Translations under genes and position numbers: made by a program
Notes under the pieces: generated by a model
Seen by the model: only the letters and a program-made list of their open reading frames with translations
What the model was told of the DNA's origin: nothing
Database searches by the model: none
Shown: one piece after another, positions 33,212-37,444 of the stretch
Layout: each line of letters opens with the position of its first letter
Numbering within the stretch: the stretch's first letter is position 1
Source: a virus
Taxonomy: Duplodnaviria; Caudoviricetes
Strand: one strand, 5' to 3'
Length of the DNA stretch: 64,000 bases
IMG/VR virus record: IMGVR_UViG_3300046004_002544
Location: 1,040-65,039 of that record

Positions 33212-33396
33212 GTCTGTGTCTCCATCTTGAGGGGCATTCCGCACATGAAGCTGCGGGCGACGATGATCCAGCCAGTGCCAATGCGGTGGAAGCCGATGAC
33301 GTTGGGCTGGCTGACTGCGAACTTGCGGGGCGGGATGACCGCAGGCGGGGAGGGCGGAGCCCTCCCCGGGAACAGTTGGACGACGTTCTCAGCCAT
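33208..33396 (-). CDS. Small hypothetical protein
   Basis: MAENVVQLFP..., coupled to both neighbours. Confidence 0.4.
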   Translation of the reverse strand: MAENVVQLFPGRAPPSPPAVIPPRKFAVSQPNVIGFHRIGTGWIIVARSFMCGMPLKMETQT

Positions 33397-33397
33397 C

Positions 33398-34489
33398 CTA
33401 CTTGGTCCGCATCTTGGTCGCCTCGACGTCCTCAACCCAACCCTCGGGGTCAGCCCGCATGCAGTTGGCGACTTGGCCGACGAGGCGGAGGGAGAGGTTG
33501 TAGAAGCGGGCTTGGTGCTCCGTGACGAAGTCGAGGACCTCCTCGCTCTGTTCGAAGGTGAGGCCGAAGTTCTTGACCAGCATGCCGTTCTCGCCTTCGG
33601 CGACCTGACGGATGCGGATCATGAAGTCGCGCTTGGTCCGCAGGGTGAGGCACAGGTACATGGAGCGGTCGATGAGGGCCTTGAAGTGCTCGGCCATCTT
33701 GTTCTGCTTGAGGATTTCCGCCTCGAAGTCGATGTTCGTGAGGAAGATCACGTGGCCTTGATAGTCGAAGGACTTGTCAATGCCGTACTCCTCGAGCCAC
33801 TGAGCCTCCTTGCGCCACGACAGGCGACGCTCCTTGCCACTGTCGAGGGCGGCCTTGAGGAGGTTGAGGCAGACCTCGTCGCGGAAGATTTCGTCGAGGT
33901 CGTCGAGGACGAGGACGCCGCCCTTGCGGGTGTACCAGAGGGCTTGGTAGAGGCCCACAGCGGTGATGCTGCCACTGATGATGTCGTAGAAGCGCGCCGC
34001 CTTCTTTTCGTCGGTGGGCACGTCTTCTTCCTTGTCATAGGCGGCGCCGTCGACGCCCATGATGACTTGCTGCATGAGGTCGCCCATCTCGTCGATGGCC
34101 TCGCGGATGGTGTGCGACTTGCCAAGGCCCGGGGGGCCGCTGACGATGAGCGAGGGCAGCTGGCCCTTGACAAGGCGGCGTGCCATGCGCCCGAGAGCGT
34201 TGTAGCGGACGTTGATGCGCGCCTTGGCTTCCTCGAGGGTCTCGACGTCCTCGTCAGCCTCAGGGAGGGAGGCCCACGTGAGGGCCTGCGCTCCAGCGGC
34301 AGAGCCGCCAGCCATCGGCATGCCGAGGGCAATCTGGCTCTTGAGGCGCGACTTGATGGACGAGACGCTGGCCGGCGTAGTGGACGCCTGCGGGAACTTC
34401 TGGCGGACGTAGAGGGCGATCGCCTCGTTGCCCATGTTGGGGTCTTTCTGCAGGCACTCAAGGACTGCATTCTGGATTTCGTTCGCCAC
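33398..34489 (-). CDS. AAA+ ATPase with an N-terminal 'KFPQAST' helical domain
   Basis: Walker A 'GPPGLGKS', Walker B 'VLVLDD', 'NLLKAALDS', 'IFLTN'. Confidence 0.8.
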   Translation of the reverse strand: MANEIQNAVLECLQKDPNMGNEAIALYVRQKFPQASTTPASVSSIKSRLKSQIALGMPMAGGSAAGAQALTWASLPEADEDVETLEEAKARINVRYNALGRMARRLVKGQLPSLIVSGPPGLGKSHTIREAIDEMGDLMQQVIMGVDGAAYDKEEDVPTDEKKAARFYDIISGSITAVGLYQALWYTRKGGVLVLDDLDEIFRDEVCLNLLKAALDSGKERRLSWRKEAQWLEEYGIDKSFDYQGHVIFLTNIDFEAEILKQNKMAEHFKALIDRSMYLCLTLRTKRDFMIRIRQVAEGENGMLVKNFGLTFEQSEEVLDFVTEHQARFYNLSLRLVGQVANCMRADPEGWVEDVEATKMRTK

Positions 34490-34535
34490 TGTCTAACTCC
34501 GTGTGGGTGTAGGCGTCTCGCCCGTCGATTTCCCC

Positions 34536-34586
34536 AGTATGCCCTGCTCCCAGCAGCTTGCAAACGGGCAAAACGCAGCCAAGGCC
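34536..34586 (-). promoter_or_regulatory. Conserved phage promoter P3
   Basis: Minus strand: GGCCTTGGCTGCGTTTTGCCCG-TTTGCA-N17-CATACT. Confidence 0.72.
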
Positions 34587-34617
34587 ATTTTGCTGGTCGC
34601 TCTATATAGGGGGCCTG

Positions 34618-34652
34618 AAAAGGCTGAGGCCTCGGATTGCTCCGAGGCCCCT
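34618..34652 (-). terminator. Terminator downstream of the tmRNA
   Basis: Minus strand: GGCCTCGGA-GCAA-TCCGAGGCC-TCAGCCTTTTC. Confidence 0.65.
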
Positions 34653-34989
34653 TCTGTTCCGAGGCCCGCCAGGGGCCCGAGTAGCTGTAGGAGGTCTACA
34701 GCTGGCGCATTACGCGGCCAGCGGGAGTTCCTGAGCCACCACGACTTGGTTGTCGTTGGCAGTTGTGGTTTTTGGGGATAACGCGCCCAGCGGTCGCCCT
34801 CAACGTCATCTACCCTTGCCCGTCGATGCTGATCGCCCCCATCATGACCGCACCGCCCGCTTCAGATACAGGCAGCTCGCTCGGACCGCCTGCGGGCCCT
34901 TTCGGGTCCGCGCCGGTGCGGTCATGGTGGAGGCGCCGGGAATCGCACCCGGGTCCGGAACAAAGTCAGACTGGTCTCAAACAGTCGAC
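34653..34989 (-). ncRNA. ssrA: Circularly permuted (two-piece) tmRNA, tag (A)ANDNQVVVAQELPLAA
   Basis: Minus strand: T-arm CCGGG-TGCGATT-CCCGG plus CGCCTCC-ACCA (ends 34925). An 84-nt intervening segment is closed by a 13-bp inverted repeat. The 5' acceptor strand GGGGGCG starts at 34840 and gives a G3-U70 pair. Tag ORF is 34760-34710 after AACT. Outer ends are estimates. Confidence 0.93.
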
Positions 34990-34995
34990 TTCTCC

Positions 34996-35024
34996 CTTAT
35001 GCGCGATCGCGCCTGGCGCGTAAA
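34996..35024 (-). promoter_or_regulatory. Promoter P4 for the tmRNA
   Basis: TTTACG-N17-CATAAG, preceded by TTTTGCGTTTTGGGCG like the other family members. Confidence 0.65.
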
Positions 35025-35036
35025 CGCCCAAAACGC

Positions 35037-35068
35037 AAAAGGCCCCGGAGTTTCCTCCGGGGCCTTCC
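35037..35068 (-). terminator. Terminator after the SSB gene
   Basis: Minus strand: AGGCCCCGGAG-GAAA-CTCCGGGGCCT-TTT. Confidence 0.75.
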
Positions 35069-35122
35069 ATGCGGCCGGCAACAGTGGGCAGGGACATACC
35101 CGTGCTGCCTGGGCAGCAGTCG

Positions 35123-35686
35123 TTACGCCAGGGGGTCGTCGCCTTCCGCCCAGCGGTCGTCGATGTCGTCCTCGGCGAAGTCGTCGGACGCATCCGTCCG
35201 GCTGTCGAGGCGATCGCCGTCCTTCACCTTCTGCAGGTTCTGCAGCCCGAAGGCCACGCCCTTCCCCTTGTTGTCGTAGGAGTAGCAGGTGATCGTCGCC
35301 CGGGCGTAGCAGCCCGGGTAGAACTCGTCCGCGTCCGTGATCGGCGTGCGATCGCGGTCGATGAGGCCGGGCCGCATCTTGGACGAGAGGTTGGCGAACA
35401 TCGTGCCGTCGCCGTAGCCGCCCAGGTCGGCCTTTTCGGCGCCGTCCCGGATCGCGCGCTTGAAGTTGCCGGGGAGGTCCGACATCTTCTTCTTGAAGCG
35501 CTCGAGGCTGACCTCGTCGGCCAGGTCGATCATGCCCTGCCAGAGCTCCTTCTCCTTGGGCGTGAAGAGCCCGGGGGTCCAGATGGCGGCGACGCTGAAC
35601 TTGGGCGCGGAGCCCTCGAACGACTTCGCCTCGAAGACGGCGGGGAACGAGACCCGGAAGACCGGGGTGACAACCTTCTTGACCAT
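35123..35686 (-). CDS. Single-stranded DNA-binding protein (DUF2815 / T7 gp2.5-like)
   Basis: 'RVSFPAVFE', 'FYPGCYARA', 'KGVAFGLQNLQKVKDGDRL', acidic tail. Confidence 0.85.
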   Translation of the reverse strand: MVKKVVTPVFRVSFPAVFEAKSFEGSAPKFSVAAIWTPGLFTPKEKELWQGMIDLADEVSLERFKKKMSDLPGNFKRAIRDGAEKADLGGYGDGTMFANLSSKMRPGLIDRDRTPITDADEFYPGCYARATITCYSYDNKGKGVAFGLQNLQKVKDGDRLDSRTDASDDFAEDDIDDRWAEGDDPLA

Positions 35687-35774
35687 ATCTCACTCGCTTT
35701 GCTAGTTTGGGTCTCTCCAGGCCGGATGGCCAGGAGCCTCTCTTAATGCCAGATCATGGGAGCGATCCGGCCCG

Positions 35775-36065
35775 TCAGTCGGCCCTGAGGCCGACACCCT
35801 GGACCAGGGAGCGGAAGCGCCCCCTGGCGTTGGGCCTGTCCACCACGGTCGCCCAGGGGCAGTCCGCCAGTGCAGTCTTGAACGCTGCTGCCGGCGCAGG
35901 GCGGTGGCCCTCTGCCTGGCACCACAGCGAGTAGTCGCGCCACAGGAGGCGCAGCGGGACAACCAGGGTGGGCCCGAGGGCACACCGGACGCCGACCCAC
36001 AGCCTGACCTGCGCGGCCGATCGCTCGGCCTCCGTGGCCCCTGCGTGGATGCGGAGAGGCGTCAT
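35775..36065 (-). CDS. Small hypothetical protein (primase C-terminal winged-helix-like)
   Basis: 'LWRDYSLWCQAEGHRP...F...L...GVGL'. Confidence 0.5.
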   Translation of the reverse strand: MTPLRIHAGATEAERSAAQVRLWVGVRCALGPTLVVPLRLLWRDYSLWCQAEGHRPAPAAAFKTALADCPWATVVDRPNARGRFRSLVQGVGLRAD

Positions 36066-37444
36066 TCCGCGACGTCCTCCTCGGGCAGGTCGTCCTCAAA
36101 GTCCGCGGTGGGGTCCCACGGAACCGCTGGCCGCGGATCGCTGTCAGGCGCCATGGTGATCTTGCCCACGCCCTTGACAGCGAGCGGGGCCTTCTCCCAC
36201 TCGTCGGGACCGTCTGGGTCCTTCTTCTTGGCCTTCGGGACCTTGACGCCGGCGACCAGCTTCTTGAGCTCCTTGTCCAGCTTTTCGATCTTGGCCGGAC
36301 CGAGGAGCTTGGGCTCGGAGTACAGGGCTTCCTTGTCGACGCCGGCTGCGGTGGCGGCTTCCACGACCGCTGCCTCGTCGACCGCCCAGACGCGGTTGGC
36401 CTTGCCTTGGACCAGCTTGTAGCCGGGCACAGGCAAGCCCTGCTTCAGACGCCGGTCGCCCAGGGTCTTGGCGGCCTTCACCAGGCCGTCCAGGAAGGGC
36501 GCCCACTCGAGCACCTGGCGCAGTCGGTCCAGGGAGCTGGGGTCCAGCTCGTCGAGGGACAGCTCGAGCGCCTGCGGGTCATCAGAGAAGTCGGCCAAGG
36601 CCACCTCCTGAGCCTTCCACAGGGCGCCAGGGCAGGTGGCCTTGGCAGGGCAGAACTGGCACTGCTCGTGACCGGCCTCCAGGTAGGTGCCGGCCCAGTC
36701 CAGGTACTCGGTCTCGTCCTGGCAATTGCTCAGGGCGTCGCGGGCTTCCTCGACCCGGTCGGCGGCGGCGCCCAGCTTGTCGGCGAATTGGCGGAGCTCG
36801 TCCTTGCTGATCCGCCACCGCCGGACCGGGCCGTCTTGGTGGGGACAGCGTGGCTGGACGATGACGACCTCGACCTCCTCGAACAGCCAGTCCACCTCCT
36901 GGGCCATGCCCAGGGCGTAGTACAGACCCTGGGTATTGCCCTCGACCTCAACCGGGACCCCCTGGCCGTGCTTGTAGTCCACGACGCGGAGGAGGCCCAG
37001 GAACTGGTAGATCGTGGCGTCGGAGGTCCCGAACATGCCCGGGCGGAGCCATTCGAGGGAGAAGCGCCGCTCGACGAAGAGCTCGGCGCCGTCACACTCG
37101 GCGAGCATCTCGCGTATGACACCGAGATAGACGTCCACGGCATAGGTCATGTCGTGGTCGACCGGGTAGAAGCCCGACGCCTGGGGAGCCTTGCCCGGCT
37201 CGTACCAGACCTCGCTCTCCATGCCGTCCTCGTACTGGATCGTCCAGCCGAGGTAGTGGGTTGAGCTCTCGTGGCCCTCCAGCAGACAGCGCTCGCCCAA
37301 GGCGTGGGCGGCGGTGCCCTGGTCGGCGGCGGTCGAGGAGTTGTTGCGCTGGCTCTCGGGGAGCTTCGCGGTGAGGGGGATGGACCCCGGGCAGGCGATG
37401 AAGCGCTTGGACCCGGAGGCCGACAGGATTGCGTGAGCGGCCAT
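36062..37444 (-). CDS. Cas4-like PD-(D/E)XK exonuclease (DUF2800)
   Basis: 'HAILSASGSKRFIACPGS', 'GTAAH', 'FGTSD...DYKHG', 'QGLYYALG', 'CQFCPAKATC'. Confidence 0.85.
   Translation of the reverse strand: MAAHAILSASGSKRFIACPGSIPLTAKLPESQRNNSSTAADQGTAAHALGERCLLEGHESSTHYLGWTIQYEDGMESEVWYEPGKAPQASGFYPVDHDMTYAVDVYLGVIREMLAECDGAELFVERRFSLEWLRPGMFGTSDATIYQFLGLLRVVDYKHGQGVPVEVEGNTQGLYYALGMAQEVDWLFEEVEVVIVQPRCPHQDGPVRRWRISKDELRQFADKLGAAADRVEEARDALSNCQDETEYLDWAGTYLEAGHEQCQFCPAKATCPGALWKAQEVALADFSDDPQALELSLDELDPSSLDRLRQVLEWAPFLDGLVKAAKTLGDRRLKQGLPVPGYKLVQGKANRVWAVDEAAVVEAATAAGVDKEALYSEPKLLGPAKIEKLDKELKKLVAGVKVPKAKKKDPDGPDEWEKAPLAVKGVGKITMAPDSDPRPAVPWDPTADFEDDLPEEDVAE

Follow-up and report, generated by a model that had tools for sequence, protein, structure and literature searches.

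Does a tailed phage carry a complete transfer-messenger RNA (tmRNA) gene of its own, and, if so, of what type is that gene, where did it come from and what might it do? This question is raised by a locus on the minus strand of a 64,000-nucleotide (nt) stretch of DNA, here called the window, which comprises bases 1040–65039 of the 65,039-nt IMG/VR record IMGVR_UViG_3300046004_002544 and to which coordinates refer. In the entire window, ARAGORN called a single gene, a permuted tmRNA at 34619–35019 on the minus strand with the tag ANDNQVVVAQELPLAA, and no tRNA gene. An Rfam search of the 64 kb returned only two matches, both over the full model length, namely RF04321 (tmRNA_permuted) at 83.7 bits versus a gathering threshold of 47 and RF01849 (alpha_tmRNA) at 56.5 bits versus a threshold of 50; no riboswitch was found there. 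A preliminary description of this DNA had claimed a circularly permuted, alpha-type two-piece tmRNA and had suggested ARAGORN and Rfam covariance-model searches as checks; both were positive, and it is confirmed that the phage encodes a real gene of this type. Judging from the letters and their context, it is quite likely that the locus represents a genuine and probably functional alphaproteobacterial-type two-piece ssrA, carried by a virulent siphovirus in its replication module, where it would stand as an accessory, self-contained cassette.

The elements of the gene are listed below, with the base pairs (bp) of helices counted where they apply.

34925–34990, minus strand: acceptor piece, its 5' boundary being provisional, with the 3' side of a putative helix P2, then the T-arm, the acceptor 3' strand, the discriminator A and CCA (34927–34925); from the sequence, ARAGORN and the Rfam alignment.
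34952–34936, minus strand: T-arm CCGGG-UGCGAUU-CCCGG, read from the sequence.
34935–34929, minus strand: acceptor 3' strand CGCCUCC, followed by A and then by CCA ending at 34925, read from the sequence.
34841–34924, minus strand: intervening segment of 84 nt, presumably removed in maturation; from the sequence and the fold (z = -6.71).
34926–34914 and 34855–34843, minus strand: perfect 13-bp inverted repeat CAUGACCGCACCG / CGGUGCGGUCAUG closing the intervening segment, read from the sequence.
34620–34840, minus strand: coding piece, with GGGGGCG (34840–34834), the AUCGACGG element, the putative P2 5' strand, the resume codon and tag frame, a 3' hairpin with the GGAACAGAA loop, and a terminator-like hairpin; from the sequence, ARAGORN and Rfam, and from the cofold for the acceptor stem.
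34710–34760, minus strand: tag frame GCC...UAA, encoding ANDNQVVVAQELPLAA and a stop, with 16 codons before the stop; from ARAGORN and the alignment to both Rfam models.

The order of the two pieces was that of a permuted gene, the acceptor piece (CCA end at 34925) lying upstream of the coding piece (GGGGGCG from 34840) with the 84 nt between them. The tRNA-like domain (TLD) had a 7-bp acceptor stem with G3:U70, a discriminator A, CCA, and a T-arm of 5 bp with a 7-nt loop, and the UCGACGG element, the G3:U pair, the discriminator A, the encoded CCA and the 5-bp T-stem were all directly legible in the sequence. An automated parser recovered the TLD as well. The T-loop UGCGAUU is a variant, with G at the position where tRNAs have U55. 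The resume codon was the alanine codon GCC at 34760, followed by the rest of ANDNQVVVAQELPLAA and by UAA at 34712–34710, and the tag was of the canonical ANDN...LAA form. The preliminary description had placed the T-arm, the acceptor, the 84-nt segment, the 13-bp repeat, GGGGGCG, the G3:U pair and the tag frame at these same positions, and reading of the sequence found every one of them there. The acceptor stem and the intervening segment folded into one long helix (-67.6 kcal/mol, z = -6.71, with 0 of 200 shuffled sequences as stable), in which the 13-bp stem stacks on the acceptor stem via a 2x2 internal loop, and the acceptor stem also formed when the two pieces, as presumed for the mature RNA, were cofolded.

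The same description had credited the gene with a promoter and a terminator of its own. The following features were found around it, between a gene for a single-strand DNA-binding protein (SSB) and a gene for an AAA-ATPase.

35030–35064, minus strand: intrinsic terminator GGCCCCGGAG-GAAA-CUCCGGGGCC, then UUUUGCGUUUU, immediately following the SSB gene on the upstream side of the tmRNA, read from the sequence.
34996–35024, minus strand: candidate promoter TTTACG (35024–35019), N17, CATAAG (35001–34996), its letters being present.
34618–34651, minus strand: terminator-like hairpin GGGGCCUCGGA-GCAA-UCCGAGGCCUC, then AGCC and UUUU; from the sequence and the cofold, the terminator tool listing a hairpin at 34628–34649 on the plus strand only.
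34613–35123, minus strand: accessory cassette, running from the upstream terminator and candidate promoter through the tmRNA gene to the downstream hairpin, in place of which contigs from the runs X4 and X6 (see below) carry 79 other letters.

Both promoter hexamers were indeed present, but a promoter scan of 33300–36200 returned 0 sites, and no repeated phage-specific promoter motif was found, no systematic search for one having been made. The downstream hairpin (34649–34628) was present as well, but is weak as a terminator, a 4-nt spacer being followed by just UUUU. A strong terminator, which the preliminary description did not mention, is the one upstream at 35064–35030, although it was not in the list of the terminator scan.

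A look-up for RNA runs with this stretch returned none. Public Logan contigs from four runs were aligned on 33400–36100; two of these runs are labelled as RNA-Seq cDNA, a label that is a guess and behind which one of them is probably DNA. In the independent lake-water run X3, a contig of 2,295 nt covered 33400–35250 with a single difference, included the tmRNA and spanned both junctions. In the wastewater runs X4 and X6, which belong to one study, one contig each joined 34612 to 35124, skipping 511 nt and carrying 79 letters between. These contigs differed from the window by about 3% in the AAA-ATPase gene (30 differences over 1,073 nt in X4), and the missing 511 nt extended from the stop codon of the SSB gene to just beyond the downstream hairpin. 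As the upstream terminator, the tmRNA with its candidate promoter, and the hairpin all fall within the gap, the locus is a self-contained unit that close relatives have or lack.

A 'moron'-type cassette is transcribed as a unit of its own, stands between two conserved genes, and is found in some close relatives and missing in others. The locus corresponds to this type in its upstream terminator, its downstream hairpin and its replacement by 79 letters in a relative, its own promoter being only a candidate.

The contig from run X3 also bears on the idea that a bacterial ssrA was misjoined into a phage contig. The record is a metagenome assembly, and many unrelated tmRNA fragments in the same samples stack on a 33-nt T-arm stretch, which would favor a misjoin; on the other hand, both junctions are spanned, with one difference, by a contig from another run, finished genomes of cultured relatives hold a tmRNA in the same module, and the G+C content is uniform across the tmRNA region. 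An assembly chimera is accordingly given a negligible probability.

Several observations weigh against a functional two-piece tmRNA carried as a useful cassette. The RF01849 score of 56.5 bits barely exceeds the threshold of 50, and in the RF04321 alignment the outer P2 helices contain non-canonical pairs, the inner P2 (UGU-U-CCG with CGG-GCA) being canonical. The candidate promoter is sub-consensus, matching at 8 of 12 positions. The entire cassette is missing from the relative that is about 97% identical, and among 11 more distant IMG/VR relatives, reached via the exonuclease gene and all at 36% identity or less, 0 of 11 had a tmRNA called by ARAGORN; the gene is therefore dispensable. We list here as well that the canonical P2 helix was absent from the free, unconstrained cofold of the two presumed pieces, which picked another partner, although this was not used as evidence either way.

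The partner chosen in the free cofold was a perfect 7-bp pairing of UGUUCCG, just 5' of the T-arm (34955–34961), with CGGAACA (34652–34660) in the 3' hairpin's conserved loop AACAGAA. This pairing competes with canonical P2 and may be due to chance or may represent a tertiary contact between the pieces. Its equivalent, by eye, was weaker in the tmRNA of the IMG/VR contig L040 and absent in the cultured Rhodobacter phages, both of which are described below.

The record that carries the gene was rated 100% complete and is that of a tailed phage, with a tape measure, tail proteins, an endolysin, a large terminase, a portal, a head morphogenesis protein and also a ribonucleotide reductase. The tmRNA is surrounded by a replication module that includes an SNF2 helicase, PolA, a topoisomerase-like gene, an AAA-ATPase, an Enc34-type SSB, a DUF2800/Cas4 exonuclease and a primase-polymerase. 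The gene lies between two neighbors, all three being on the same strand.

35123–35686, minus strand: upstream neighbor, Enc34 / Gp2.5-like single-strand DNA-binding protein (phrog_112, 5.4e-45; PF10991, 6.4e-41).
33398–34489, minus strand: downstream neighbor, AAA-ATPase (phrog_1250, 1.5e-84).

As the preliminary description had noted for integrase and smpB, searches of the record for an integrase (PF00589), a resolvase (PF00239) and SmpB (PF01668) found none. The first two results concern the possibility that the locus is the phage half of an attachment (att) site targeting ssrA, or host DNA from an imprecise excision. This idea draws on reports that tmRNA genes are common integration sites and that prophages can bear ssrA fragments (PMC4383910, PMC9004378). 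An att-site fragment would be a partial 3' ssrA next to an integrase and nearly identical to the host ssrA; the gene found here is whole and not confined to a 3' part, neither a tyrosine integrase nor a resolvase was found, the similarity to sampled bacterial ssrA genes was limited to 31–49 nt among the matches listed, and the cultured relative RcSimone-Hastad is reported to be virulent, to lack lysogeny genes and to have yielded no lysogens (PMC8601537). An att remnant or integration module is thus largely refuted and very improbable.

The nearest cultured phages were RcSimone-Hastad (MW677525) and RcRudolph (OP009285) of cluster RcG, which are reported to have YuA-like prolate heads (PMC8601537, PMC9753621). 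Of 57 heuristic open reading frames (ORFs) in the window, 30 matched RcSimone-Hastad, a virulent phage of Rhodobacter capsulatus, in colinear order and with a median identity of 52%. The carrier is a YuA-like siphovirus from freshwater, kin to known Rhodobacter phages, and because of these matches the alphaproteobacterial host that the preliminary description had proposed is plausible. Both RcG phages were found to have a permuted tmRNA with the tag ANDNVRMDAQALAA, located between the HIRAN and topoisomerase genes and downstream of the SSB homologue.

L003:2942–3355 (MW677525): RcSimone-Hastad permuted tmRNA, unannotated.
OP009285 49133–49468 (L004:2930–3265): RcRudolph permuted tmRNA, unannotated.

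Neither GenBank record, MW677525 or OP009285, has a tmRNA annotation; the word tmRNA is absent from the available text of PMC8601537 and in that of PMC9753621 stands solely within a reference title. In RcRudolph, a coding sequence for a 'hypothetical protein', RCRUDOLPH_61, overlies the tmRNA on the same strand and is probably a spurious call. The IMG/VR contig L107 was a third phage of the RcG type with the same tag, and the tmRNAs of the three phages, between the SSB and topoisomerase-like genes, scored 99.5–108.7 bits on RF04321 and 90.8–97.7 bits on RF01849.

The window and the RcG phages thus have in common the 30 colinear ORFs, the location of the tmRNA in the same module and the permuted alpha-type architecture, and their tmRNAs agree in the acceptor stem, in an ANDN...LAA tag and in an intervening segment that is long and closed by a stem (97–98 nt with a 14-bp stem in RcG). 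They differ in the tag itself, in the junction, which is HIRAN, tmRNA, topoisomerase in RcG and SSB, tmRNA, AAA-ATPase in the window, and in the letters of the gene, the BLAST alignment of the window with RcG covering just 47 nt. The AAA-ATPase that adjoins the tmRNA in the window was 59% identical to the RcG AAA-ATPases, which in the RcG genomes are located about 10 kb away, beyond the primase, indicating that the replication module was rearranged around the tmRNA slot.

The presence of the gene in these phages is of importance for the idea of a neutral passenger, that is, an intact gene acquired from either a host or a different phage, conferring no benefit and heading for loss. Absence of the cassette from the relative of about 97% identity and from all 11 distant relatives would be expected of such a passenger, as would a candidate promoter that is weak by consensus. 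However, the diverged relatives RcG and L107 (median protein identity 52%) retain a tmRNA in the same module, and the window gene has diverged strongly from sampled bacterial copies and has yet kept all of its TLD features, its precursor stem and its open tag frame. Structure kept despite strong divergence suggests long-term purifying selection, and a passenger without benefit is considered improbable.

A functional cassette could operate as follows. It would be transcribed alone, being set off by the terminator upstream and the terminator-like hairpin downstream. In the precursor, the 13-bp stem of the intervening segment would extend the 7-bp acceptor stem, and the 84-nt segment would be excised by host enzymes, with RNase P acting at the 5' GGGG and tRNA-type 3' trimming proceeding to the encoded CCA, so that the acceptor and coding pieces would remain base-paired. 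From the G3:U70 pair we infer charging by host AlaRS; host SmpB and EF-Tu would then deliver the RNA to stalled ribosomes, resumption on GCC would add ANDNQVVVAQELPLAA, and the C-terminal LAA of the tag would mark the tagged protein for ClpXP-type proteolysis. The preliminary description had also proposed counter-defence or retuned proteolysis as possible functions. The likely benefit of the gene would be an added capacity for ribosome rescue during the decay of host and phage mRNAs, a benefit that must be conditional, since a nearly identical relative manages without the gene.

Alternatively, the phage RNA might be a decoy or inhibitor that titrates host SmpB or occupies stalled ribosomes, thereby blocking or redirecting host trans-translation. 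Mycobacteriophage DS6A has a tmRNA consisting of the TLD alone, to which such a role has been ascribed as a suggestion; Hudson et al. 2014 (PMC4131195) note strong inhibition of tmRNA by a TLD-like molecule, which may act through titration of SmpB. A decoy role would be in keeping with a phage in whose record no SmpB gene (PF01668) was found and with a gene whose TLD is the best-conserved part, the remainder being diverged. A pure decoy, however, would have no need of the full coding piece, the resume codon, the intact 16-codon frame with its ANDN start and LAA end, or the stop, and tags are intact also in RcG, in L040 and in 73 of the at least 119 IMG/VR copies described below. This role is rated as somewhat less probable even than that of a neutral passenger, and a tmRNA that works in ribosome rescue remains our preferred reading.

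Where such a gene might have come from was examined by comparison with bacterial and viral sequences. The exact 32-nt T-arm/acceptor word was found at 12 loci among 185,579 species genomes, mostly in one-piece tmRNAs of Elusimicrobia, and this scarcity argues that the gene is not a recent host copy. A 361-nt query was compared by BLAST with 401 evenly drawn Alphaproteobacteria genomes, two of them flagged as unpublished and without bearing on any conclusion. Matches were obtained in 247 of the 401 genomes; among the matches listed (150), all covered 31–49 nt within query positions 39–92 and were confined to the T-arm/acceptor part, the best of them scoring 60.8 bits. In the preliminary description, near-identity to a chromosomal ssrA was the sign of an att remnant or a chimera; no nearly identical bacterial ssrA was found among the matches listed from the 401 Alphaproteobacteria or, by the 32-nt word, in the 185,579 species genomes.

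The closest sequence found was instead the tmRNA of the IMG/VR contigs L040, L073 and L178, together with L146, a 9.7-kb contig binned in a metagenome-assembled genome.

L040:8172–8406, L073:5226–5460, L178:35–174 and L146:3342–3481: L040-type tmRNA (RF04321, 64.5 bits).

The window and the L040-type tmRNA were 77.6% identical over 143 nt, comprising the T-arm, the intervening segment, which is of the identical length of 84 nt, and the 5' coding part, and they have the same T-loop. The phage that carries it in L040, by contrast, is unrelated: it encodes a P22-like portal, Terminase_3 and HNH and has 0 proteins in common with the window; its tmRNA is also without a 26-nt stretch before the tag, and its frame, located by eye, starts with GUG (VNDNHFQPSALAA) and was not called by ARAGORN. 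GUG instead of an alanine codon would mean an unusual resume codon, or that the true resume point lies elsewhere. The stem of the intervening segment was retained, with different letters, in the three lineages represented by the window, the RcG phages and L040. A lineage-specific 23-nt pattern was found in IMG/VR in L040, L073 and L178 only, and in a metagenome collection it was found in 3 contigs matching just 23–24 nt, with no host candidate among them.

In an 83-row tree of permuted tmRNAs, in which bacteria were represented by the 30 best BLAST matches, a biased sample, the window joined L040 rather than RcG (95/89). A clade of the window with RcG was not rejected by the approximately unbiased (AU) test (p = 0.353), and the branches of the window and L040 were long and compositionally odd. 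The window gene may descend, with much divergence, from that of RcG, or may have entered this module independently.

The two-piece tmRNA of Alphaproteobacteria, of the Caulobacter type, was reportedly described by Keiler, Shapiro and Williams in 2000. The window gene is like bacterial alpha-type tmRNA (RF01849) in having the acceptor piece first, an ANDN...AA tag, G3:U70 and an AACAGAA loop near the 3' end, and unlike it in its score, a bacterial example reaching 238.7 bits on RF01849 versus 56.5 in the window. In the biased sample of the 30 best bacterial matches, the T-loop was GGCGGUA in 23 of 30 versus UGCGAUU in the window, and the intervening segments were of 5–60 nt with at most 6 uninterrupted pairs versus 84 nt with a 13-bp stem. 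Viral intervening segments (L016–L134) had a median of 67 nt and a range of 8–215, with at least 11 uninterrupted closing pairs in 30 of 113; bacterial ones (L148–L177, n = 30) had a median of 37 nt and a range of 5–60, and none had more than 6 pairs. Because both samples were picked by similarity to the window, this difference is only a lead.

It is tentatively suggested, as a rather doubtful reading, that the window tmRNA belongs to a phage-adapted ssrA lineage that passes, as a small and self-contained cassette, from one phage to another unrelated one and is not captured anew from each host. Such a lineage would fit the occurrence of the closest copy, whose intervening segment is of equal length, in a P22-like phage, the finding that beyond the T-arm nothing similar was detected among the matches listed from the 401 Alphaproteobacteria or in the 185,579 species genomes, and the presence of long stem-closed intervening segments in 30 of 113 viral but in none of the 30 bacterial copies. 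If it exists, the T-loop, the long double-stranded precursor stem and the divergent middle of the tag would be adaptations, which could evade a host nuclease or adaptor acting on host tmRNA or alter which proteases see the tag.

Two-piece tmRNAs are already known from phages. Buchholz et al. 2022 reported a tmRNA in 402 of 18,146 phage genomes, comprising 133 unique forms; 53 were two-piece according to ARAGORN, and 50 of these 53 came from aquatic samples (PMC9004378). In the present study, a degenerate alpha-type acceptor word matched at least 119 IMG/VR stretches, in 73 of which ARAGORN called a permuted tmRNA, with 35 distinct tags that were nearly all of the form ANDN...AA. The rarity implied by the preliminary description, which spoke of known phage tmRNAs as mostly one-piece, was therefore mistaken, since two-piece forms are published (PMC9004378) and are abundant in IMG/VR; its interpretation overall was supported. 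The window tmRNA is another example of these known phage two-piece tmRNAs and not a novelty of kind. New here are the RcG tmRNAs left unannotated in GenBank, the relative of about 97% identity without the cassette, the confinement of the listed bacterial ssrA matches to the T-arm and acceptor part, and the closest copy in an unrelated P22-like phage.

Among the phages with such genes, OM43 phage Melnitz, pelagimyophages and cyanophages have, like the window, a complete permuted alpha-type ssrA, no reported integrase and an aquatic origin, but they are T4-like myophages, some of which bear a glutamine riboswitch within the 3' domain of ssrA, and not YuA-like siphoviruses (PMC9004378). A tmRNA has also been reported for Sphingobium phage Lacusarx (PMC5648845). 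The giant phages CcrColossus (JX100810) of Caulobacter and vB_BgoS-Bajun (ON529858) of Brevundimonas have alpha-type permuted tmRNAs as well, with scores close to those of the window on both models (RF04321, 83.8 and 87.9 bits; RF01849, 53.5 and 57.4 bits, respectively), but their genomes are of 200–330 kb, their tmRNAs lie amid tRNA genes, and their similarity to the window is restricted to 32–167 nt. The Bajun gene is annotated as a tmRNA and was called permuted by ARAGORN.

Literature text searches found no paper that tests what phage-borne tmRNAs do. The two-piece tmRNAs overlooked in RcSimone-Hastad and RcRudolph, both virulent, in culture and infecting a laboratory bacterium, Rhodobacter capsulatus, offer a practical handle on this question, and in the environment there is a natural near-isogenic pair of phages, only one of which has the cassette. 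With these cultured phages and this natural pair, the alternatives of added rescue, decoy or counter-defence could be tested in a tractable alphaproteobacterial system.

Two further observations were made on permuted genes in other sequences. In CcrColossus, the permuted tmRNA lies between tRNA-Cys and tRNA-Met (L184:523–906, about 132328–132711 of JX100810); it is unannotated and was missed by ARAGORN. In contigs binned as Candidatus Saccharibacteria (L138:714–793 and L139:4785–4863), the same T-arm/acceptor word was followed after 28–29 nt by GGGGGCG, and ARAGORN made no call; this layout resembles that of a permuted tmRNA, and the contigs may be those of phages or may belong to an unreported permuted lineage.

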